Shown: positions 8,707 through 47,393 of the stretch, piece by piece
Position numbering within the stretch: the first letter of the stretch is position 1
Layout: each line of letters begins with the position of its first letter
Origin: Candidatus Ventrenecus stercoripullorum
GTDB taxonomy: Bacteria; Bacillota_I; Bacilli_A; RF39; UBA660
Assembly (NCBI GenBank): GCA_018712835.1
Contig: DVGF01000046.1
Location: 1-57,574 of the forward strand
Direction of reading: 5' to 3'
DNA length: 57,574 bases
The notes under the pieces: generated by a model
What the model was told of the DNA's origin: nothing
What the model saw: the letters and a program-made list of their open reading frames with translations, nothing else
Databases searched by the model: none
Program-made: the position numbers and the translations under genes

Positions 8707-8880
8707 AATAAAAATTTAAAAACCTGGATTGGATAATATTGAAAAAGTTGGTAAATAATCTGAAAAACAATTTTATGATTTGAAATCTTTGAGTAAGAAA
8801 TTTATTCCGTGAAGTTTATTATTTTTAGAATTGCACTTAAAAATAGAATTATATGGTGCAAAAAACCGCACAAAAAATGC

Positions 8881-8909
8881 TTGACGTACATATAATTTAA
8901 TGTTAAGAT
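8881..8909 (+). promoter_or_regulatory. sigma-A type promoter of the str operon
   Basis: TTGACG (8881-8886), 17-nt spacer, TAAGAT (8904-8909), about 95 nt upstream of rpsL. Confidence 0.55.
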
Positions 8910-9004
8910 ATTTTTGACTTTTAAATGTTGGTTTTACTTCGGTAAAACCTTGTTTAAAGAAATGTTTGATACACCAGGGTGTGTGTAAATAGGAAGGAGA
9001 TTTT

Positions 9005-9418
9005 ATGGCTACTATTAATCAACTTGTTAAAAAAGGAAGAAGTAAGAAAACCAGAAAAAGTAAAAGTCCGGTTTTAAATGTAGGATTAAATACTCTTGAA
9101 AGAAAACAAACTGAACAAAATAGTCCACAAAAACGTGGAGTATGTGTTCGTGTGGCAACTAAGACACCAAAGAAACCGAACTCAGCATTACGTAAATATG
9201 CTCGTGTAAGACTTTCAAATGGTAAAGAAATTGATGCTTATATTCCAGGTGAAGGACATAATTTACAAGAACATAGTGTTGTTTTAGTACGTGGTGGACG
9301 TGTAAAAGACTTAATCGGTGTTCGTTATCATGTTGTTCGTGGTACCCTTGATACTCAAGGAGTTCAAAATCGTCAACAAGGTCGTAGTAAATATGGAACA
9401 AAGAAACCTAAAAAATAA
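9005..9418 (+). CDS. rpsL: 30S ribosomal protein S12
   Basis: '[33 protein letters not shown]' is a canonical S12 sequence. Confidence 0.98.
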
Positions 9419-9436
9419 TAGAAGGAGGAAATAATT

Positions 9437-9904
9437 ATGCGTAAAAGAAGAGCAGAAAAAAGAGATGTTTTACCAGATTCTATTTATAACTCTAAGATTG
9501 TTACTAAGTTAATCAATCAAATTATGCAAGATGGTAAAAAAGGAACCGCTCAAAAAATTCTTTATGAAGCATTTGATATTGTTGCAGAGAAAACTGGTAA
9601 ACCTGCAATTGAAGTTTACCAAGAAGCTCTTGATAACATTAAACCAGCTTTAGAAGTAAAATCACGTAGAGTTGGTGGAAGTAATTATCAAGTGCCAATT
9701 GAAGTTAGTGATGAAAGAAGTCAAACTTTAGCATTAAGATGGTTAGTAAATTATGCTAAAAATCGTAGTGGAAAAGGTATGGCTTATAAACTTGCTATGG
9801 AAATTATAGATGCTGCTAACGGAACAGGTGGAGCAGTGAAAAAACGTGAGGATACTCACAAAATGGCTGAAGCAAATAAAGCATTTGCTCATTATAGATG
9901 GTAG
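9437..9904 (+). CDS. rpsG: 30S ribosomal protein S7
   Basis: Canonical S7 sequence ('GKK..A..I.Y.AF...', 'VEV.SRRVGG..YQVP.EV') in str operon order. Confidence 0.98.
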
Positions 9905-9915
9905 GAGTGTGAGTT

Positions 9916-11991
9916 ATGGCAAGAGATGTCTCTATTGATAAAGTAAGAAATATTGGAATTATGGCTCACATTGATGCCGGAAAGACAACTTGTACAGAAC
10001 GTATTTTATTCCATACAGGAGTTACTCATAAAATTGGAGAAACTCATGATGGTGAGTCTCAAATGGACTGGATGGAACAAGAGAAAGAAAGAGGTATTAC
10101 TATTACTAGTGCAGCAACTACTGCACATTGGAAGGGATATCGTTTCAATATTATTGATACTCCAGGTCACGTAGACTTTACTGTTGAAGTATCAAGAAGT
10201 TTAAGAGTACTTGATGGTGCTGTTTGTTTGATTGATGCTCAAGCTGGTGTTGAACCGCAAAGTGAAACTGTATGGCGTCAAGCAGATGAATTTAAAGTTC
10301 CAAGAATGGTATTTGCTAATAAAATGGATAAGATGGGAGCTGATTTTGAGTTCTCATTAGGTACTTTGAAGTCTCGTTTAGGTATTGATACTAAGCCAAT
10401 TGAATGGCCAATTGGAGCTGAAGATAATTTTAAAGGTATTATTGACTTGGTTACCATGAAAGCATATGAATATGATGGTAAACAAGATGAAAATCCAAAG
10501 GAAATTGATATTCCTGATGATTTGAAGGATTTAGCTCAAGAGAAACACAATGACTTAATTGAAAAAGTTGTGGAATTCGATGATGCTTTAATGGAAAAAT
10601 ATTTGAATGGTGAAGAACTTACTGTAGAAGAAATCAAATCTGCTATTCGTAAGGGAACACTTGAAGTTAAGTTTTTCCCAGTACTTTGTGGTACTGCATT
10701 AGGTAATATGGGTGTTAAGTTATTACTTGACGCGATTATTGATTACATGCCAGCACCTACAGATGTAGAAGCTATTGAATGTTTTAATCCAAAAACTGGA
10801 GAAGATGTATGGCGTCATCCAAGTGATGATGAACCATTTACAGCTTTAGCATTTAAGATTATGACTGATCCATTCGTTGGACGTTTAGCATTCTTCCGTG
10901 TTTATTCAGGACATTTATCAAGTGGATCTTATGTTCTAAATAGTACAAAGGGAGTAAAAGAAAGAATTGGTCGTATTTTACAAATGCATGCAAATTCACG
11001 TAAGGAAATTCAAGAAGTTTACTGTGGTGAAATTGCAGCTGCTGTAGGACTTAAGGATACAACTACTGCTGATACATTATGTGATGAAAAAAATCCTGCT
11101 GTTATGAAAGGTATGGAATTCCCATTACCAGTTATTGATGTTGCTATTGAACCAAAATCAAAAGCAGATCAAGAAAAAATGGCTACGGCTTTACAAAAAT
11201 TAGCAGAAGAGGATCCAACATTTAAGTATAAAACTGACCCTGAAACAGGACAAACTGTTATCAGTGGTATGGGTGAATTACACTTAGATATTATGGTGGA
11301 TCGTATGAAACGTGAATTCCACGTAGAGGCTAATATTGGTCGTCCACAAGTTGCTTATCGTGAAACACTTACTCAAATGGGTGAATGTGAAGGTAAGTAT
11401 ATTAAACAATCTGGTGGACGTGGACAATATGGACACGTTTGGATTAAATTTGAACCTAATAAAGATAAAGGTTATGAATTCGTTGACGCAATCGTTGGTG
11501 GTGTAGTTCCTCGTGAATACATTCCAGTTACTGATAAAGGATTACAAGAAGCTATGGCTGGAGGTATTTTAGCTGGATATCCAATGGTTGATGTTAAAGC
11601 TACTTTATTTGATGGAAGTTACCATGATGTAGACTCTTCTGAAATGGCATTTAAGATTGCTGCATCTATGGCACTTAAAGAAGCGAAAAATAAGTGTAAA
11701 CCAGTACTTCTTGAACCAATTATGAAAGTAACTGTTACAATTCCTGATGAATATATGGGAAATGTTATGGGAGATTTAACAAGCCGTCGTGGTCGTCCAC
11801 TAGGTCAAGAATCTCGTGGAAATGCTTTAGCAATTACTGCTATGGTGCCACTTGCTGAAATGTTTGGCTATGCAACGACTTTACGTAGTAATACACAAGG
11901 TCGTGGGAACTTCAATATGGAATTAGACCATTATGAAGAGGTTCCAAAATCAATCGCTGAAGAAATTATTAAGAAAAACAGCGTTAACTAA
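9916..11991 (+). CDS. fusA: elongation factor G
   Basis: '[14 protein letters not shown]', 'DTPGHVDF', 691 aa. Confidence 0.98.
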
Positions 11992-21953: not shown

Positions 21954-22583
21954 ATGGAAAGTAAGAAAGTAAAAAAGATTTTAAATCGTTTCGGGGTTCA
22001 AGCTGTTTTTCGAGATATTCCAGAGTATTATGGACTTATTCTTTCTAAGATTTTTCAAGTTCCATTAAAACAAATTATGGATAATATGGACTGTTCTCCA
22101 TATTTGAGTGAAGATTTTTTAGATAAATTTGAGTTGCTTTTGAAAGAATATATTTTCGCTTTTTCTTGTGTTCATTCTGATTTTGAAAAGAAAATATTGA
22201 AAAATGGAGAGTCTTGCGACAATATTAATGTGTCTAATTACCTTTTTAAAAAGAAGGCACTTAAAAATGTTGATTCTGTGCTTGTTAATTTAGAATATAA
22301 AGATACCACAGAAATTCCAAAAGAGTTTTATTCGAAATCTGAAAGGTCTAAAGATGATGATTATATCTTTGCCAGTTATTATTTTAATATGAATTATTTA
22401 TTTCATTGCGATATCAACGTTGTAAAAGATCCTAAAAATTTAGAGTATTATTTCTATCCTTTGGTTTGCTATGATGAAAACATATTAATTGAGATTTATA
22501 AGGATGATAGTTTGATGATGGAAGTTGTAAAATATGTTCAAGAACTTTATAATAACCCTTATATCATAGAGTGTTCCTTGTAA
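21954..22583 (+). CDS. hypothetical protein
   Basis: GGGGGTG RBS before ATG 21954 (ORF track 21876). I recognise no motif. Confidence 0.5.
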   Translation: MESKKVKKILNRFGVQAVFRDIPEYYGLILSKIFQVPLKQIMDNMDCSPYLSEDFLDKFELLLKEYIFAFSCVHSDFEKKILKNGESCDNINVSNYLFKKKALKNVDSVLVNLEYKDTTEIPKEFYSKSERSKDDDYIFASYYFNMNYLFHCDINVVKDPKNLEYYFYPLVCYDENILIEIYKDDSLMMEVVKYVQELYNNPYIIECSL

Positions 22584-22588
22584 TTTTT

Positions 22589-22626
22589 GGCTCGTTATTA
22601 TTTTTCTACTTTTCTAGTAACGAGCC
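22589..22626 (+). terminator. hairpin, possible terminator
   Basis: ggctcgtta-(20 nt)-taacgagcc. No clear T tract follows. Confidence 0.35.
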
Positions 22627-22634
22627 TTCCATTT

Positions 22635-22823
22635 CCTAACTTGTAACGCAATCGAACATTTCATTCATTGGAATTAATAAAGTCTCCATCATTCATAATA
22701 TATATATTAAAAATTTAATGATACATAGTTGTTATAGATAATTGAGAAATTTTATGTTAAGAACTTTTTGAATATTCACTTCTTTCTATTATTTATCAAT
22801 GTTCGATTGCGTTATGGGTTAGG
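22635..22823. promoter_or_regulatory. candidate invertible DNA segment (25-bp inverted repeats flanking 139 bp)
   Basis: IR-L 22635-22659 is cctaacttgtaacgcaatcgaacat and IR-R 22799-22823 is atgttcgattgcgttatgggttagg (22/25 complementary). The enclosed AT-rich DNA holds a minus-strand TTAACA-18 nt-TATAAC promoter-like element (plus coordinates 22731-22760). Confidence 0.4.
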
Positions 22824-23004
22824 GAATTTTGTTTGGGCTAAATTATTTTGTAAAATTAATTTGTGGGTTAACATATTATATTACTTGTTTTTTTAGAAAA
22901 TATCTTGCATTAGTAAGTATGATGACATGAAATGTCGCTTCTTTTTTTCTTGCTTTTTTCACTTAGTTGTAGTAACATGTGATGTAGAAAGTAGGGTTAG
23001 TGTT

Positions 23005-24711
23005 ATGAAGAAACAAACAATTATAGCACTAGCAGTCATAGGAGTACTGTTAGTAGGAACGATAGGAGTGACTTTTGCATACTTTGCATCTAGTAGTCAA
23101 AATGATAATGCCGGTATTAATGCAGAAACAGAAGAACTAGGAAGTATTTTGTTAGATGGAACAAAAGTGTTTACTTCTTATGATTTATTACCAGGACAAA
23201 TGGGAGTACAAGAATTTACAATAGAAAAGAATTCAGATACTGGTAATGGTATTTATGAAATTGATTTAGAAGCAACTGTTCCAGAAGAATTTCAAAGTGA
23301 TATAGAAATACTTTTATATAAAACAACAAACCCAGTAAGTAATAATGTTACTGTAAATGTAGCAGATCCAACATTAGAGAATAATCAAATTTATCAGGAA
23401 GATAGTTTAAATATTACAGGAAGTCCAGAACTAGTATATCAAGGAATACTTACAGAAAATCCCCAAATCATCTTAGAACAACAAGATTTTGATGTAACAA
23501 CTTTAGAAAAGACAACCTATTACTTAGTATATCATTATAAAAACAACGGAAATCAAGATGATCAACAAGGGAAGACATTTACAGGAACGATAACTGTGAG
23601 ACTTATTAATGAGAAATTAACAGATTATAAAAAATGTACAGAATTATATGGCGAAGATAATCCTCAATGTGGTATTTTAGCTCAAGTAGATACGACAGGA
23701 AAATGTCCAACAGTGAATGAACAAGGACAAATCTTAGTCAGTGGACCGGAAACAACTGAAAGCCTCGTTTGTAGTGCGCCAGATGATTATGGAACAAGTT
23801 ATTATTATAGAGGAGATGTGGAAAATAACTGGGTAAAGTTTGCTGATGCATATTGGCGAATAGTAAGAGTGAATGGTGATGGAAGTATTAGAATCGTCTA
23901 TGCCGGAGATGCCAACACTATTGATGCTTTACCAAATAAAGAAGAAGTATTACAAAATGGATATGATGATAGTAGTACCGATTATACCCAAATAGGGACC
24001 AGTGCGTATAACTCATCATATAATGATAATGCATATGTAGGATATATGTATGGAACACCAGGAAGTAGTAGTTATGAAGAAACCCATGCAAATATCAATG
24101 ATAGTACAATCAAACAATATATTGATCAATGGTACAAAACAAATATTGTCGATAAAGGATATAGTGAATATGTCAGTGATACGTTATTCTGTAATGACAG
24201 AAGCTTTGTATATGATGAGGCATTTTCAATTGATGGCTTTTATAATGGAAATACAATGACTCAACTAGGCTATGGACAAAACTATACAGCATATCGTTGG
24301 GCAGGGGATCCACAGGCGGCTCAAATGGGCGGAGAGTATGAAAAAGTATTAACTTATCCAAATTTTCGTTGTAGTAATCAAAATGATCGGTTTACAGTAA
24401 GCAGTGGAATAGGGAATGGAGCATTGACATATCCAATAGCATTACTAAGTACTGACGATATCTATGCAGCCGGAGGATTTAGTACAGAAAACTATAACTA
24501 TTATTTGTATACAGGAAATTTGTATTGGTCTTTGTCGCCGAGCAACTTCAATGATGGCTACGCGTACGTGCGTAACGTGTATAACTATGCTAGCAACTAC
24601 GACTATGTGGATGACTCCATCGGCGTCCGTCCCGCAATCAATCTGAAGTCTGGTAGTCTGACGCAAGGCTCAGGAACGGCTAATGACCCATTTGTATTAT
24701 CAGGGAACTAG
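23005..24711 (+). CDS. DGR target protein: secreted TasA/camelysin-like N-domain plus C-terminal variable lectin-like (DUF1566-type) domain
   Basis: Start is ATG 23005 (ORF track 22927). The signal 'LLVGTIGVTFAYFASS' resembles the SipW-cognate TasA/CalY class. The C-terminus '...YWSLSPSNFNDGYAYVRNVYNYASNYDYVDDSIGVRPA' contains the VR. Confidence 0.85.
   Translation: MKKQTIIALAVIGVLLVGTIGVTFAYFASSSQNDNAGINAETEELGSILLDGTKVFTSYDLLPGQMGVQEFTIEKNSDTGNGIYEIDLEATVPEEFQSDIEILLYKTTNPVSNNVTVNVADPTLENNQIYQEDSLNITGSPELVYQGILTENPQIILEQQDFDVTTLEKTTYYLVYHYKNNGNQDDQQGKTFTGTITVRLINEKLTDYKKCTELYGEDNPQCGILAQVDTTGKCPTVNEQGQILVSGPETTESLVCSAPDDYGTSYYYRGDVENNWVKFADAYWRIVRVNGDGSIRIVYAGDANTIDALPNKEEVLQNGYDDSSTDYTQIGTSAYNSSYNDNAYVGYMYGTPGSSSYEETHANINDSTIKQYIDQWYKTNIVDKGYSEYVSDTLFCNDRSFVYDEAFSIDGFYNGNTMTQLGYGQNYTAYRWAGDPQAAQMGGEYEKVLTYPNFRCSNQNDRFTVSSGIGNGALTYPIALLSTDDIYAAGGFSTENYNYYLYTGNLYWSLSPSNFNDGYAYVRNVYNYASNYDYVDDSIGVRPAINLKSGSLTQGSGTANDPFVLSGN
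24530..24636 (+). repeat. DGR variable repeat (VR)
   Basis: 107 bp aligned without gaps to 24847-24953. There are 9 mismatches (24542, 24559, 24565, 24580, 24586, 24598, 24604, 24613, 24620), and the TR base is A at all of them. Confidence 0.95.
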
Positions 24712-24747
24712 AATTATCAGGGGTAAGCCTAAGACGATGAAACGTTG

Positions 24748-24773
24748 CCCAAAAATGACTCCTCATTTTTGGG
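24748..24773 (+). terminator. 11-bp-stem hairpin downstream of the target gene
   Basis: cccaaaaatga-ctcc-tcatttttggg, then ccggcgccatttttt. It could be a terminator and/or a DGR target-proximal hairpin. Confidence 0.55.
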
Positions 24774-24846
24774 CCGGCGCCATTTTTTAAAATTTAGCAT
24801 CAATAAAAATATAGATGTAGGGATTTTCTAAATAGAGGGACTTTTG

Positions 24847-24953
24847 CTTTGTCGCCGAACAACTTCAATGATGGCAACGCGAACGTGCGTAACGTGAATA
24901 ACAATGCTAGCAACAACGACAATGTGGATAACTCCAACGGCGTCCGTCCCGCA
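24847..24953 (+). repeat. DGR template repeat (TR)
   Basis: Non-coding copy of the VR. In the VR frame it reads LSPNNFNDGNANVRNVNNNASNNDNVDNSNGVRPA, which is rich in AAY codons. Noticeably more GC-rich than its flanks. Confidence 0.95.
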
Positions 24954-25160
24954 GATTCCTACTACGATTAGTAAATTACTAATGCACCGAGTGTAAACGG
25001 TCACGGCTTTTTACGAGAGGAAGTAATCACTTTATGTGATAATCTAATCAGATTGGAAACAAGAAAATTCCTAGGGCAAGTCCCTGAATAGAAAATATAG
25101 ACGTTTTGGTCTTCCTTCTAAAAGAATGAGAGGGCGTAAAAACTATCAGCTATATTAGTG
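24954..25160 (+). ncRNA. TR-flanking spacer region of the putative DGR RNA
   Basis: About 200 nt of non-coding sequence between the TR and a strong terminator, with local stems such as caccg-agtgtaaa-cggt. By analogy with the Sp region of the Bordetella phage DGR RNA; function not shown here. Confidence 0.35.
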
Positions 25161-25189
25161 GCAGAAGAAATTATTTCTTCTGCTTTTTT
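25161..25189 (+). terminator. rho-independent terminator ending the TR transcript
   Basis: gcagaagaaa-tta-tttcttctgc followed by tttttt. Confidence 0.75.
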
Positions 25190-25300
25190 CTTTATATTTC
25201 GCTGTGTTTTTTTGCTGCTTTGTTATTTTTAATCTTTTTTTTGATTTTTTCAGCTTTTCAGTTATCGACTATTTTAAGATAAAAAATAATCTATTAAAAA

Positions 25301-25329
25301 TGCAAGAAGGACAATTTATTCTTCTTGCA
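25301..25329 (-). terminator. terminator of the Rpn-family gene
   Basis: On the minus strand: tgcaagaag-(11 nt)-cttcttgca followed by ttttt. Confidence 0.6.
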
Positions 25330-25345
25330 ATGATATAAAAACATA

Positions 25346-26248
25346 CTAACTTTCCTGTAAATTTAAAATCTCTTGTTTAGAAAGACCAGTAGATTTCATA
25401 ATTGTAGGAATATCAATCTTAAGATTTAATAAATTCTTAGCGATTTCAATACTTCGAGTTCTAAGGCCTTCATGCTTTCCTTTTTGAATTCCTTCTTGAA
25501 TTCCTTCTTCTCTTCCTTCTTGAATCCCTTCTTCTCTTCCATTTCTTCGCGCTATCTCTTCATTTTTTCTTGTTAAGCTTTTAAATTTTAAAACAGCTTC
25601 ATCATTTACAAATTCTTCCATCACTTGTGCTAAATCCATAAGTATTTCACTTCCTCTCGCTATTTCTAATCTTTCTTCTTTACTTTTCGCATAAATCATT
25701 TTCATGATTCTACGTAATTCTTCTTTTCTGTCATCATCATAAACCACATCGTCTAACTTGTCAAGGCGATAAATATATCCCTCTACTTTATTAGTAATTA
25801 TCTTATATGTTTTTTTGTTCATAAATAGAAAATCTGTTTCATATTCATCTATGTCAGGAACATGAGAAGACACGCAAAAATTATACTGAGTGACTTTAGG
25901 TTGATTTTGATATTTTTCTCCAATTTCTAATCTTGTTCCATAAATTCTAGTAAGATAAGTAAGACTTTTTTCAAAATCATCTTCTTCGAAAGTCGTATAC
26001 ATTTCAAGGTCGATTACTTCATCTTCGGATTTTGCTAAAACATCTGAAGTAATTCCTTTATCATTTAATTTCGTTTTATCTAAAAAAACTTCATTTAACA
26101 CAGTGACTTTTCCTTTTAAAGAATGTTTTTCATACCCTTTTAAAAGTTCCAATAAATATTCTGTAAATCTCACATTTTTTTGGGTACCAAAAATTTCTTT
26201 AAAGATTAAATCACCATGTAAGGATTCTCTCGTGTGAATTTTACTCAA
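25346..26248 (-). CDS. Rpn-family recombination-promoting nuclease / PDDEXK_2 putative transposase
   Basis: 'DLIFKEIFG...', '..ITSDVLAKSEDEVIDLEMY' (D...E.K-type nuclease core layout) and C-terminal 'EGIQEGREEGIQEGIQKG' repeats typical of this family. Confidence 0.7.
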   Translation of the reverse strand: MSKIHTRESLHGDLIFKEIFGTQKNVRFTEYLLELLKGYEKHSLKGKVTVLNEVFLDKTKLNDKGITSDVLAKSEDEVIDLEMYTTFEEDDFEKSLTYLTRIYGTRLEIGEKYQNQPKVTQYNFCVSSHVPDIDEYETDFLFMNKKTYKIITNKVEGYIYRLDKLDDVVYDDDRKEELRRIMKMIYAKSKEERLEIARGSEILMDLAQVMEEFVNDEAVLKFKSLTRKNEEIARRNGREEGIQEGREEGIQEGIQKGKHEGLRTRSIEIAKNLLNLKIDIPTIMKSTGLSKQEILNLQES

Positions 26249-37895: not shown

Positions 37896-38633
37896 ATGAA
37901 TTCTGAAGCAAGAGACGTTTTAGCTAAGTCTATAGAGGCATATCAAACTAAAGAAAAAAAGTTAGTCTCGTCCATTCAAGAAGGTTACATAGGAAAGAAT
38001 ACTTATGAAGTTACGTTAGAGAATGGGGAAACGATGATAAGTGACCAAATTACTAAGAGAAAAGATCATGGAAATGCGTCGGTTATTCTAGCAATTACTC
38101 ATAATCATAAATTTTTAGTTGTTGTACAGTCAAGACCTAATACGAAAGAAACCGTGGCAATAGAATTTCCTGCAGGAATGGCAGATGAAAAAGAGGTAGG
38201 AGAAATTACAGCTGTTCGAGAACTGATGGAAGAGACAGGGTATTTACCAGAGACTATTTCTAAACTGGAGGAACATTATCAAGACCAAGGGTGTAGTAAG
38301 GCAGTTATTACGACTTATTTAGCAGAAGGATGTAAAAAGGTTAGGGAACCTAAGTTGGATGCGGATGAAAATTTAAGTTATGTATTGTTAACAAAACGGG
38401 ATATTGAGGAATTAATGTTTGGACAACGTAAAGTTCCGACAAGAGTTAGACAATTTTTAGAAGATGTAATATATGACTTTTTAAAGCGACATCCACAGAG
38501 ATTCGAAAGAGAAAGAAAAAAATTAGAACTTAGAATACGTCAGGATAGCTTAATTAGAGAAATTGGTATGCGTGATGCAAATTCTAAAATTGCTTATTTA
38601 AGTTACAAATTAGAAAGAAAAACATTTTTTTAA
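37896..38633 (+). CDS. Nudix hydrolase (ADP-ribose pyrophosphatase-like) with C-terminal extension
   Basis: Nudix box 'GMADEKEVGEITAVRELMEETGY'. Start is ATG 37896 after GGAGGAAGGG (ORF track 37827). Confidence 0.8.
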   Translation: MNSEARDVLAKSIEAYQTKEKKLVSSIQEGYIGKNTYEVTLENGETMISDQITKRKDHGNASVILAITHNHKFLVVVQSRPNTKETVAIEFPAGMADEKEVGEITAVRELMEETGYLPETISKLEEHYQDQGCSKAVITTYLAEGCKKVREPKLDADENLSYVLLTKRDIEELMFGQRKVPTRVRQFLEDVIYDFLKRHPQRFERERKKLELRIRQDSLIREIGMRDANSKIAYLSYKLERKTFF

Positions 38634-38635
38634 AA

Positions 38636-38650
38636 TTTGTTATTAACAAA
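38636..38650. promoter_or_regulatory. 15-bp palindrome TTTGTTA-T-TAACAAA, candidate operator
   Basis: Perfect palindrome inside a 55-bp intergenic module that is repeated at 39087-39141. Confidence 0.45.
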
Positions 38651-38676
38651 ATATTAGAAAGAAAGGAAAGAGAGAT

Positions 38677-39081
38677 ATGGTATTAAAGATGAACCGTAAA
38701 ATGATAAAGAATATGATTGAACAATATTATCAAAGATTTTATAACATGGAAATTACTGCAGATATTAGAGCAAGTAAGGAATGTATGGGATATTATGAAC
38801 AGGAAGGATGTATGGTAACTATTGTTGCTCGGGGCGTGAAAACGTTAATGGGTGAAAGTATTCCTTATGAGGAGAGAATTACAGAGGAAAAATTAGAGGA
38901 AATTTGTAAGGAAATGCTTGCTTTAGAAGAAATGGAGGTATTACGAATTTCTTTTGATTCAGGACTTACTGATTCGACAGAAGGGTATGGATATGGTGAG
39001 CATACTGTTATAAGAGCTTATTTTCATGGGATTGAAGTTACTGTAAATCCTATTCAGCAAATGAATTTAGTTAGAAAATAA
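38677..39081 (+). CDS. hypothetical 134-aa protein in the NAD operon
   Basis: Good RBS (AAAGGAAAGAGAG). I recognise no motif. Confidence 0.55.
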   Translation: MVLKMNRKMIKNMIEQYYQRFYNMEITADIRASKECMGYYEQEGCMVTIVARGVKTLMGESIPYEERITEEKLEEICKEMLALEEMEVLRISFDSGLTDSTEGYGYGEHTVIRAYFHGIEVTVNPIQQMNLVRK

Positions 39082-39097
39082 AATTATTTTTTTAAAA

Positions 39098-39112
39098 TTT
39101 GTTATTAACGAT
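39098..39112. promoter_or_regulatory. imperfect copy of the palindrome (TTTGTTA-T-TAACGAT)
   Basis: Second copy of the intergenic module, just before pncA. Confidence 0.4.
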
Positions 39113-39138
39113 ATATTAAGAAGAGAGGAAAGAGAGAT

Positions 39139-39723
39139 ATGAAAAATTTAGAAGAAGTTAATAGTGCAATCTTCGTGATTGACATGAATAATGGATTTTG
39201 TGAGGAAGGAGCACTTGCAGATCCAACAATAAAAGGAATTGTTCCAAATATTAGAAAGATTATTATGGATGGTTTGAAAAGAGAAAGTGCTTTGTTTTTT
39301 GTAAATGATAAACATACAGAAGACAGTGTAGAAATAAAAAGATATGCAGGGCATTGTATTACTCCTAGAGAACAAAAAACAATTAAGGAATTAAGTATTT
39401 TTGAAGAATACGCAGATAGAGTTTTTTATAAGAATTCTACATGTGCATTGTTTGCACCAGGAATGATGGAGATGTTACTTCAAATGAAAAACTTAGAAAG
39501 AATTGTTATTACTGGGTGTTGTACCGATATTTGTATTATGAATTTTGCAGTTGCTTTAAGAAATTTTATGGATGAGTGGAATGTCGATATTGATATTGTG
39601 GTACCTATAAATGCAGTAGAGACTTTTCATATTCCGAATGTTCATGAAAGGGAAGAAGCAAACCAATTTGGATACCGTGTTATGGAAAGTAATGGTATTC
39701 GTTTAGTAAAGGAGATGGATTAA
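39139..39723 (+). CDS. pncA: nicotinamidase (isochorismatase-family cysteine hydrolase)
   Basis: 'VIDMNNGF', 'ITGCCTDICI' (catalytic Cys), and adjacency to pncB. Confidence 0.75.
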   Translation: MKNLEEVNSAIFVIDMNNGFCEEGALADPTIKGIVPNIRKIIMDGLKRESALFFVNDKHTEDSVEIKRYAGHCITPREQKTIKELSIFEEYADRVFYKNSTCALFAPGMMEMLLQMKNLERIVITGCCTDICIMNFAVALRNFMDEWNVDIDIVVPINAVETFHIPNVHEREEANQFGYRVMESNGIRLVKEMD

Positions 39724-46577: not shown

Positions 46578-47393
46578 ATGTCGTATAAAAATGAAGAGGA
46601 GTTTTTAGCTCATTATAATCCGAATGAATTTGATAGGCCTTCTGTGACAACTGATATATTAATTGTTAGTATTAGTGATGAGGCCCCAACTAATTATCGT
46701 AAAAGTAAGAAGAAATCTATGAGTATCTTGCTTGTGAAGAGAAATGACTATCCTTTTAAAGATATGTGGTGCTTGCCGGGTGGATTTCTTAGAATGGACG
46801 AGGAGTTAGAAGACGCACCAAAAAGAATTTTGGCAACCGAAACAAATTTACGAGACATTTATTTAGAGCAGTTATATACGTTTGGTGGTGTTCATCGTGA
46901 TCCACGGATGCGGGTGTTATCAGCTTCTTATATCGCTTTAGTAGATAAAAATAAGTTGCCTGAAAAAATTCATGAAAATGCAAAGTGGTTTGATGTCGAT
47001 TATGTCGAAGATCATGATCACGTGAAAGTGTATCTATCTAGTGAGGAAGAAAATTTCTCTTTTGAGATTAAGAAAATTTTGCACGAAAAAACAACGGACC
47101 GTTACCGTTTTGAAATTGTTTCAAATGCTGCTTTAGCATTTGACCATCCACTTATCATTTGGAGTGGAATTGAAAGACTTAAGAATAAGATTAGTTATAC
47201 GGATATTGTCTTTAATATGATGCCAGAGTATTTTACACTTGGAGAACTTCAAAAAGTTTATGAAGTGATTTTGCATAAGAAACTGCTTGATCCTGCTTTT
47301 CGTAGAATTATTGCTGATAAAGTAGAAAAGACAGAATTTATGGAAACAGGGGCAGGACATAGACCATCTTATATGTACCGATATAAGAAATAA
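46578..47393 (+). CDS. nrtR: NrtR-like Nudix-related transcriptional regulator
   Basis: An N-terminal Nudix-fold ('WCLPGGFLRMDEELEDAPKRILATETNL') is followed by a C-terminal winged-helix-like region ('FTLGELQKVYEVILHKKLLDPAFRRII'). It is the last gene of the NAD operon. Confidence 0.7.
   Translation: MSYKNEEEFLAHYNPNEFDRPSVTTDILIVSISDEAPTNYRKSKKKSMSILLVKRNDYPFKDMWCLPGGFLRMDEELEDAPKRILATETNLRDIYLEQLYTFGGVHRDPRMRVLSASYIALVDKNKLPEKIHENAKWFDVDYVEDHDHVKVYLSSEEENFSFEIKKILHEKTTDRYRFEIVSNAALAFDHPLIIWSGIERLKNKISYTDIVFNMMPEYFTLGELQKVYEVILHKKLLDPAFRRIIADKVEKTEFMETGAGHRPSYMYRYKK

Follow-up and report, generated by a model that had tools for sequence, protein, structure and literature searches.

A remote template and variable repeat pair with very recent adenine-directed diversification, and an interrupted reverse transcriptase, in a Candidatus Ventrenecus stercoripullorum chromosome

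The DNA analysed here, positions 1 to 57,574 of the forward strand of contig DVGF01000046.1 (Candidatus Ventrenecus stercoripullorum, assembly GCA_018712835.1; hereafter the window, meaning this whole stretch), is ordinary chromosome and not prophage, as judged from rpsL, rpsG, fusA, genes of NAD metabolism and cell-wall glycosyltransferases. Set within it are components of diversity-generating retroelements (DGRs), in prokaryotes the sole natural system known to target proteins for hypermutation: at the 5' edge a cassette with a reverse transcriptase (RT) gene, RT1, and far downstream of it a target gene with a variable repeat (VR-B), followed by a non-coding template repeat (TR-B). With thousands of DGRs already on record, a further VR/TR pair would by itself be unremarkable; the interest of this one lies in the recency of its diversification and in the placement and condition of the RT. 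The downstream set, which we call module B, comprises the following features.

23005..24711, plus strand: target gene B, 568 aa (an alternative ATG at 22927 gives 594 aa).
24530..24636, plus strand: VR-B, codons for ...LSPSNFNDGYAYVRNVYNYASNYDYVDDSIGVRPA, with nine A-site differences from TR-B.
24621..24636, plus strand: GC-rich invariant 3' end of VR-B, CGGCGTCCGTCCCGCA, resembling an initiation-of-mutagenic-homing (IMH) boundary; the same sequence closes TR-B at 24938-24953.
24747..24774, plus strand: 12-bp hairpin after the target stop, from a single-sequence fold, with a U-run following at 24783-24788.
24847..24953, plus strand: TR-B, non-coding, with 33 A and 14 in-frame AAY codons.
24954..25060, plus strand: spacer 3' of TR-B, GAKTCCTWMTAYGATKAGT … GAGAG.GAA.TAA … hairpin … AAYCTAA, homologous to the spacers after RT-adjacent TRs.
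25160..25194, plus strand: intrinsic terminator with an 11-bp stem and T-run, which would close a stand-alone TR-B transcript.

A preliminary description of this DNA had reported a 107-bp gap-free match between the two repeats with nine mismatches, all of them adenines in the downstream copy, and both a MAFFT alignment and a direct comparison of VR-B with TR-B agree with it: 107 columns, 0 gaps and 9 mismatches, at repeat positions 13, 30, 36, 51, 57, 69, 75, 84 and 91, where TR-B invariably has A and VR-B has T (seven times) or G (twice). Given 33 adenines and 74 non-A positions in the 107 nt of TR-B, the probability that nine of nine mismatches fall on A by chance is 1.1e-5. Read in the gene frame, all nine sites occupy position 1 or 2 of TR-B AAC/AAT codons, again as had been described, and change Asn to Ser, Tyr (six times), Asp and Ile within a VR-B that spans codons 25 to 61 counted from the target stop. 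Homology breaks off abruptly at either side of the repeat, and the final 16 nt, CGGCGTCCGTCCCGCA, were correctly noted as GC-rich and are identical in the two copies. The repeat has a GC content of ~50% versus 29% for the window, of which it is the sole long repeat of such kind, and a search of the window that tolerated any change at A positions found no further VR/TR copies. GC-rich ends like …TCCCCCGC[AC] also close the TRs of relatives, an analogy on which we infer that the GC-rich 3' end may act as an IMH-type homing boundary; no difference of the IMH versus IMH* type is visible inside the VR-B/TR-B repeat. A scan of viral contigs with TR-B plus its spacer gave 0 matches.

The population test was run on public assemblies, in which the 90%-identity protein cluster of the target holds three VR sequences. 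The VR shared by four contigs (L011-L014) and the VR of a fifth (L015) each differ from TR-B at 12 positions, all of them adenines (0/74 non-A), and TR-B is 100% identical in L011 and L014, where the contig reaches the TR, whereas the VRs differ. Pooled over the three VR alleles there are 20 variable positions, and 20/20 are TR adenines (P = 2.4e-13); apart from one AGC codon, every codon affected is AAY (13 of 14), and no third codon position varies. The check that had been proposed, namely whether VR variation is restricted to TR adenines, therefore comes out positively across three alleles, with 0 mismatches at non-A positions and population variation confined to A-templated sites. Comparison of the window with L011 over 22500-25500 revealed 14 differences, of which 13 lie inside the VR (24541-24620) and 1 in ~2,900 other positions, whereas the flanks outside 22500-25500 are 1-3% different. 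Because the VR changes are adenine-only and their surroundings nearly identical, the directional rewriting of the coding copy must be very recent, and the VR-B differences are probably the product of very recent retrohoming. Two further claims of the preliminary description, that the pair bears the signature of mutagenic retrohoming and that the element was active in the lineage of this genome, gain support from the same data: the TR is invariant while the VR varies solely at template adenines between strains, and 13/14 differences of the ~3-kb segment sit in VR-B.

On a wider scale, the target-B/TR-B module (~22830-25190) is a hypervariable allelic island, with three allele groups that are 80-84% identical inside flanks that are 99% identical. 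Perfect A-only correspondence of VR and TR is kept in the window's allele group only; non-A mismatches between VR and TR number 25 in L006-L009 and 11 in L037/L038, and one TR has an in-frame TAA, as expected from drift after retrohoming stops. Both of these groups keep the same RT-less layout of module B. We considered whether L006 and L037 might be sister species, with an RT-less layout that predates speciation, and rejected this because their flanks match the window at 99% identity, which makes them strains whose module alleles have diverged. Two contigs, L012 and L013, carry an insertion sequence with a DDE_Tnp_1 transposase (8659-9927) just upstream of target-B, between positions corresponding to window 22942 and 22932, and these are strains bearing VR allele 2.

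The product of target gene B has a putative SipW-type signal peptide (weak cognate_SipW match) and >7,900 homologues, the named ones from metagenome-assembled genomes (MAGs) of uncultured Bacilli; gene calls of exactly 568 aa and 594 aa are both present in public data, and the start at 23005 is that of the 568-aa call. In a full-length AlphaFold2 model (predicted local distance difference test, pLDDT, 79.7), an N-terminal beta-sandwich matches the TasA fibre subunit 8aur, and the full-length fold search gave nothing informative on the VR domain. The C-terminal 341 residues were modelled with pLDDT 85.6 and a predicted template-modelling score (pTM) of 0.89, and the fold of this domain matches DUF6273 proteins of uncultured phages (probability 1.0); its sole PDB fold match is the Thomasclavelia ramosa IgA peptidase (IgAse) 9qa6 (probability 1.0, template-modelling score, TM, 0.39). 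The N-terminal domain of 9qa6 has been described in a paper as C-type-lectin-like, resembling the C-terminal domain of Legionella Lcl. Pfam gave a sub-threshold DUF6273 match only over the VR region, a profile search of the PDB with the VR domain yielded no sequence-level match, and the fold search of the C-terminal domain returned no direct match to Mtd or TvpA. On these models, the residues encoded by VR-B probably sit on a ligand-binding tip of lectin type, as they do in the targets of other DGRs, and the combination of a TasA-like N-terminal domain with a DUF6273 lectin-like tip suggests a diversified surface or fibre adhesin.

The RT cassette at the window's 5' edge, together with the recombinase-in-trio (RIT) element that interrupts it, is made up as follows.

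1..82, plus strand: spacer 3' of TR-A, a second template repeat that lies just outside the 5' edge of the window.
83..508, plus strand: candidate MutS-like (MSL) accessory gene, 141 aa (Pfam MutS_I, E 0.046, sub-threshold).
505..831, plus strand: candidate Avd-like accessory gene, 108 aa (NCBIfam DivGenRetAVD, E 9e-4, 19.5 bits against a cut-off of 80).
803..1410, plus strand: N-terminal part of RT1, residues 1-203, ending …GKGLPIG; the open reading frame (ORF) runs 64 nt into the insertion, to 1474.
1411..4866, plus strand: RIT element, 3,456 bp, with three tyrosine recombinase genes; interrupts RT1.
1498..2772, 2765..3703 and 3715..4728, plus strand: the RIT tyrosine recombinase genes (Pfam Phage_integrase in all three, E 1e-22 to 3e-34).
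4867..5338, plus strand: C-terminal part of RT1, NMTSQFLSIFYL…YMDD… (RVT_1, E 8e-10).

A six-frame motif scan of the window found one YxDD-type RT motif (YMDD), near 4958, and RT1 is the sole RT in the 57.6 kb. In the ORF 803..1474, …GKGLPIG is followed by 20 unrelated residues, and the ORF 4871..5338 opens with MTSQFLSIFYL… and holds the YMDD; when 1410 is joined to 4867, a continuous ORF of 359 aa containing GLPIGNMTSQ results, and the rebuilt RT1 is collinear with >100 intact homologues of 350-375 aa, the junction being free of any gap or insertion. By its motifs, GLPIGNMTSQ (motif 4, [LIV]GxxxSQ) and YMDD, RT1 qualifies as a DGR-type RT. Its best PDB match is the 328-aa RT 8ub7_A (E 9e-19), which has GIPIGSLTSQ and which we take to be bRT, although the record name reads just 'Reverse transcriptase'; a group II maturase follows at 7e-5. 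Against the NCBIfam models for group II, retron and defence-associated RTs (DRT), RT1 falls far short of the cut-offs, and its phage matches, at <=35% identity, include Bordetella phage records, presumably of DGR-bearing phages. The Avd-like candidate aligned over 92/104 positions of the DivGenRetAVD profile and has no Pfam or PDB sequence match. Both accessory ORFs keep their size and position in related cassettes, and in two relatives (L044/L045) the annotations at those positions are PF22296 bAvd and MutS_I (weak).

The cassette has a repeat pair of its own. The window corresponds at 100% identity to position 1564 onward of a longer contig, L017 (ERZ28573989 scaffold_980), in which pair A, just upstream of window position 1 (L017 27-1551), consists of a 426-aa target gene with VR-A and TR-A. 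Over 90 nt, VR-A (L017 1143-1232) and TR-A (1462-1551) show 13 A-site mismatches and 0 others; VR-A is identical in five contigs, and TR-A lies within the RT cassette, as is usual for DGRs, where the TR tends to be found some 1-2 kb from the RT. Contig L001 and three related MAGs, whose RTs are 68-73% identical, have the same order with an intact RT: target with VR, TR ~320 nt downstream, a 141-aa ORF, a 106/108-aa ORF and the RT. A scan of reference genomes did not find the species, only the 68-73% identical relatives. Since the cassette owns the TR-A/VR-A pair, module B, whose TR starts 24.0 kb downstream of the RT1 start and 19.5 kb downstream of the RT1 stop, is a second module with a different TR sequence. 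In one strain, L005 (1131-1270; 98.4% identical to window 1-1480), TR-A is cut to ~45 nt and is preceded by a phage-type integrase gene and a terminator, this RT cassette having lost the target, the VR and most of the TR in addition to carrying the RIT insertion. Downstream of RT1, at 5504-6608, three small ORFs (118, 131 and 118 aa) with N-terminal hydrophobic segments are conserved in all strains and have no Pfam match.

B-type and RT-adjacent A-type modules share one plan: a hairpin after the stop codon, an AGGGA box 5' of the TR, the TR, the spacer and a hairpin, after which the A-type arrives at the MSL start codon and the B-type runs on to the intrinsic terminator. In alignments, a GC-rich hairpin occupies the position equivalent to 24747..24774 in the RT-adjacent modules of relatives, and this hairpin may be either terminator-like or DGR-associated; the terminator position looks conserved, by eye, in the allele groups of L006 and L037. 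The spacer 24954..25060 is presumed to be the region of the TR RNA in which RT and Avd recognition and priming would take place. The allele groups differ in its hairpin by a compensatory change, ATCAC/GTGAT versus ATCAT/ATGAT. RNAalifold reports compensatory pairs in the spacer, a covariation signal that is suggestive only, since the alignment is uncertain and contains just two sequence clades. Folded as single sequences, the inter-repeat region and the spacer were unexceptional (z -1.4 and -1.7), and an Rfam scan of 24600-25400 found nothing near gathering thresholds.

The element that splits RT1 fits the published RIT definition (Van Houdt et al. 2012, PMC3414803) in having three co-oriented recombinases and long terminal inverted repeats. 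The recombinase genes are tightly packed, genes A and B overlapping by 8 bp and genes B and C being separated by 11 nt; the inverted repeats (1405-1507 / 4738-4840) are 103 nt long and 96% complementary, and TATTGG is present at both junctions (1405-1410 and 4861-4866). The element sits after codon 203 of RT1, between the G and N codons of GLPIGNMTSQ, and deleting 1411..4866 restores the ORF exactly. Every contig with either half of RT1 has the RIT at the same junction or a break at its inverted repeat. In the metagenome collection, the exact intact-junction pattern of an empty RT site, GGGTTACCTATTGGAAATATGACTAGTCAG, had 0 matches and the junction-left pattern a single match, which is occupied by the RIT; ten rebuilt intact RT1 proteins were absent from the protein collection by exact look-up. 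Both RT1 halves share one 90%-identity cluster of 198 members (the cluster of P0006), and no intact RT1 allele was found among the 40 of 198 members read or by homology search, which gives cluster representatives only. That the N-half (223 aa) and the C-half (155 aa) cluster together although they have no sequence in common could mean that a full-length member bridges them. At the DNA level, the RT1 alleles that carry the RIT diverge by up to 1.6%; some are damaged further, among them a frameshifted form of 74 aa, present on 16 contigs, and another form without YMDD. Because it is shared by strains this divergent and has been followed by secondary lesions, the insertion looks old, and RT1 looks like a decaying pseudogene.

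A different DGR-type RT was encountered on one contig, L026 (ERZ28574184 scaffold_3074), of which positions 1-830 are the reverse complement of an RT C-half, RT2, left of the RIT. This C-half reads …IG|NETSQILAIYYL…YMDD… and is followed by the start of an MraY-like gene; the RIT end lies at the same codon as in RT1, and the right part of L026 equals window 1406-11338 at 99.93% identity. Either there are two RIT copies in two RT genes, joined here by an inversion or an assembly switch, or the element is site-specific for the motif. A search for the RT2 protein, intact or exact, did not find it. The broader idea that RITs generally target DGR RT genes, prompted by the short length of all RT2-like matches, was not supported: a RIT at the RT junction was seen only in RT1 and L026, and the RT genes of an RT2-like clade, L041-L045, are split not by a RIT but by a conserved in-frame TAA. 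In this clade (e.g. L044 7509-8519) the TAA (…ILIKKL*KDIPDKDL…) occurs in several samples and could reflect a pseudogene or recoding, and the loci consist of MutS_I, bAvd and RT with an fn3/PKD target of ~970 aa. A different RIT element, with three integrases and inverted repeats of 90 nt, occurs on contig L010 (9683-12991), where it has inserted right at the stop codon of a target-B homologue (79% identity).

We consider it very probable that TR-B and VR-B are a DGR pair that diversifies a lectin-like tip and that module B is an RT-less satellite served in trans. The adenine-only pattern, the invariance of the TR against the variability of the VR, the recent VR differences and the DGR-type RT cassette in the window are observed directly, and the pair is a bona fide TR/VR pair of an MSL-avd-RT type DGR lineage; that module B (target, VR, TR, spacer and terminator) is a satellite dependent on an RT elsewhere is the most likely interpretation of its layout, in which no RT adjoins TR-B in any of the three allele groups within one species. 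In the proposed mechanism, TR-B and its conserved 3' spacer would be transcribed, and a DGR RT with Avd-like and MutS-like proteins would copy the RNA, misincorporating opposite template adenines. The complementary DNA (cDNA) would then replace VR-B up to the GC-rich 3' boundary, with the result that up to 14 Asn (AAY) codons and one Ser (AGC) codon could be recoded in the putative ligand-binding face of the DUF6273 domain, which would form the C-terminus of a secreted TasA-like surface protein. Because the sole RT of the window is split by the RIT, VR-B diversification is probably off in this genome as sequenced, and the present VR would stem from earlier or imported activity. The label 'textbook', given in the preliminary description, holds for the repeat pair and not for the locus, where no RT stands beside TR-B and the only RT in the window is split.

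Several observations count against this interpretation. TR-B is without an adjacent RT, and the action of RT1 on it in trans is a proposal. TR-B and TR-A differ in sequence, and their spacers are moderately similar, with a 20-nt insertion in B. The Avd and MSL assignments fall below curated thresholds, and the lectin assignment comes from one match at TM 0.39 combined with the description of the N-terminal domain of 9qa6, the aligned region of 9qa6 being unspecified. A promoter scan found no plus-strand sigma-70-like promoter upstream of TR-B, so TR-B may be co-transcribed with the target gene. Finally, an old-looking RIT insertion and very young VR-B changes are hard to reconcile with RT1 as the enzyme.

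This last point bears on which RT rewrote VR-B. RT1 may have done so in trans before the RIT insertion, module B now being a frozen relic, a possibility that we regard as somewhat doubtful. It draws on RT1 being the only RT in the 57.6-kb window, on the homology of the module B spacer with RT-adjacent TR spacers, on the finding that trans supply of avd-TR-RT works in Bordetella (Wu et al., PMC5758913), on the split and decaying state of RT1 and on the drift of the two other module B allele groups (11 and 25 non-A mismatches, one TR with a TAA). However, the VR alleles of the window's group (group I) sit on a segment with just one other difference in ~2.9 kb, whereas RIT-bearing RT1 alleles differ by up to 1.6% and have extra lesions, and a simple clock puts the VR changes after the insertion; recombination could have blurred this timing if RT1 acted earlier. 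We tentatively entertain, as a reading that could well hold without being the probable one, that another RT was responsible, either a second DGR RT in the genome, such as RT2 of L026, or that of a donor population exporting the ~3-kb module by recombination. In L026 the RT2 C-half adjoins sequence that matches the window at 99.93% identity, the 22.5-25.5 kb stretch is nearly identical between flanks that diverge by 1-3%, which suggests recent recombinational spread, and target-B is an allelic island of 80-84% identity inside 99%-identical flanks; but in L026 a RIT end interrupts RT2 too, at the codon where RT1 is split, that contig may be an assembly chimera across the inverted repeats, and neither an intact nor an exact RT2 protein turned up.

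A precise excision of the RIT at TATTGG now and then, restoring RT1 and transiently enabling hypermutation, would resolve the timing puzzle, and the identical 6 bp at both junctions with exact restoration of the ORF across them, three apparently intact tyrosine recombinases, and the location of the element at one and the same codon of both RT1 and RT2, which implies site-specific recombination, all speak for it. We nevertheless judge it very unlikely: there is no empty site among the data searched, with 0 matches to the intact junction and the sole junction-left match occupied, none of the ten rebuilt intact proteins occurs in the protein collection, and the extra frameshifts of some RT1 alleles argue for decay and not for a maintained switch. 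Hardly more credible, and in our view improbable, is the wider scheme in which the satellite module borrows an RT and the RIT is a site-specific, possibly reversible interrupter that gates hypermutation; if true, it would explain recent VR diversification although every assembled RT is interrupted. That the locus is no DGR at all but an ordinary segmental duplication diverged by point mutation and selection has nothing in its favour beyond the existence of a direct repeat. All variable positions of the three alleles (20/20) coincide with TR adenines (P = 2.4e-13), the TR does not vary between strains, variability is found in the first two positions of AAY codons, genes for a DGR RT and for Avd-like and MSL proteins lie nearby, and the same layout recurs with intact RTs in relatives; such directional, adenine-specific rewriting effectively excludes duplication with ordinary mutation.

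The preferred reading, an RT-less satellite module of a DGR, can be set beside known systems. The DGR of Bordetella phage BPP-1 (mtd-VR, avd, TR, brt) is the experimentally characterised prototype. Like it, the present pair shows A-to-N mutagenesis, an AAY-rich TR and a GC-rich invariant 3' end of VR and TR, and the VR is predicted to lie in a C-type-lectin-like C-terminal domain. It differs from BPP-1 in an RT identity of about 30% or less, in the order of the cassette (target-VR-TR-MSL-avd-RT here; target-VR-avd-TR-RT in BPP-1), in having no IMH/IMH* difference within the repeat, in diversifying a chromosomal host gene instead of a phage tail fibre, and in its target scaffold, TasA-like plus DUF6273. 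Another such system is Architecture D of Wu et al. 2018 (NAR 46:11; PMC5758913), which has the MSL and avd layout. Shared with it are a DGR-clade RT with IGNxxSQ and YMDD, a candidate MutS-like and then a candidate Avd-like ORF upstream of the RT, adenine-specific TR/VR differences, a VR at the 3' end of the target and a chromosomal, non-phage context. Unlike in Architecture D, TR-B lies outside the RT cassette: it follows the RT start by 24 kb and is accompanied by a target, spacer and terminator of its own. Another TR/VR pair belongs to the cassette, whose RT is interrupted by a RIT and whose Avd and MSL matches are sub-threshold.

One RT cassette can act on distant sites, as in Treponema denticola, Legionella and others (PMC5758913, PMC6642488), and a two-TR DGR is known from Stenotrophomonas sp. 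SKA14 (Yan et al. 2019, PMC6642488). Since action on distant targets, complementation in trans and elements with two TRs all have precedents, the mechanism proposed here needs nothing new. In known remote targets, however, the VR is templated by the TR beside the RT, whereas in this case a different TR and spacer accompany the remote target itself; a shallow literature search found no description of a remote target with its own TR as a stand-alone module. RIT elements have been described as predominant in alpha- and beta-proteobacteria (PMC3414803). The present one resembles them in its three adjacent same-strand tyrosine recombinase genes and ~100-nt flanking inverted repeats, and it differs in its host, a low-GC gut Bacilli/'Tenericutes'-like organism, and in its location inside a DGR RT gene at a conserved motif-4 codon. 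Unusual at this locus, then, are a remote target with its own TR and spacer but without an RT, a sole RT that is interrupted by a RIT, and diversification that is nonetheless very recent. The locus adds clean natural evidence of very recent retrohoming in an uncultured organism of this kind. Detectors based on RT proximity would miss or mis-assign a target that has its own TR and spacer but no RT, and the inactivation of the only visible RT by a mobile element raises the question of how DGR activity gets lost, shared or switched in populations.

The gene next after module B is the following.

25346..26248, minus strand: Rpn/PDDEXK_2 family gene, a PD-(D/E)XK nuclease or putative transposase.

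An RT beside TR-B was looked for at this place, which turned out to be taken by this oppositely oriented gene. In several assemblies the sequence breaks off inside the gene or just short of it, suggesting multi-copy sequence. Elsewhere in the window, a 66-nt direct repeat of 88% identity (38614-38679 / 39076-39141) ends at the ATG of two consecutive genes of an NAD-salvage cluster, the second of them of the isochorismatase family; an NrtR-like regulator lies at 46578, and the repeat may be a shared operator or leader.

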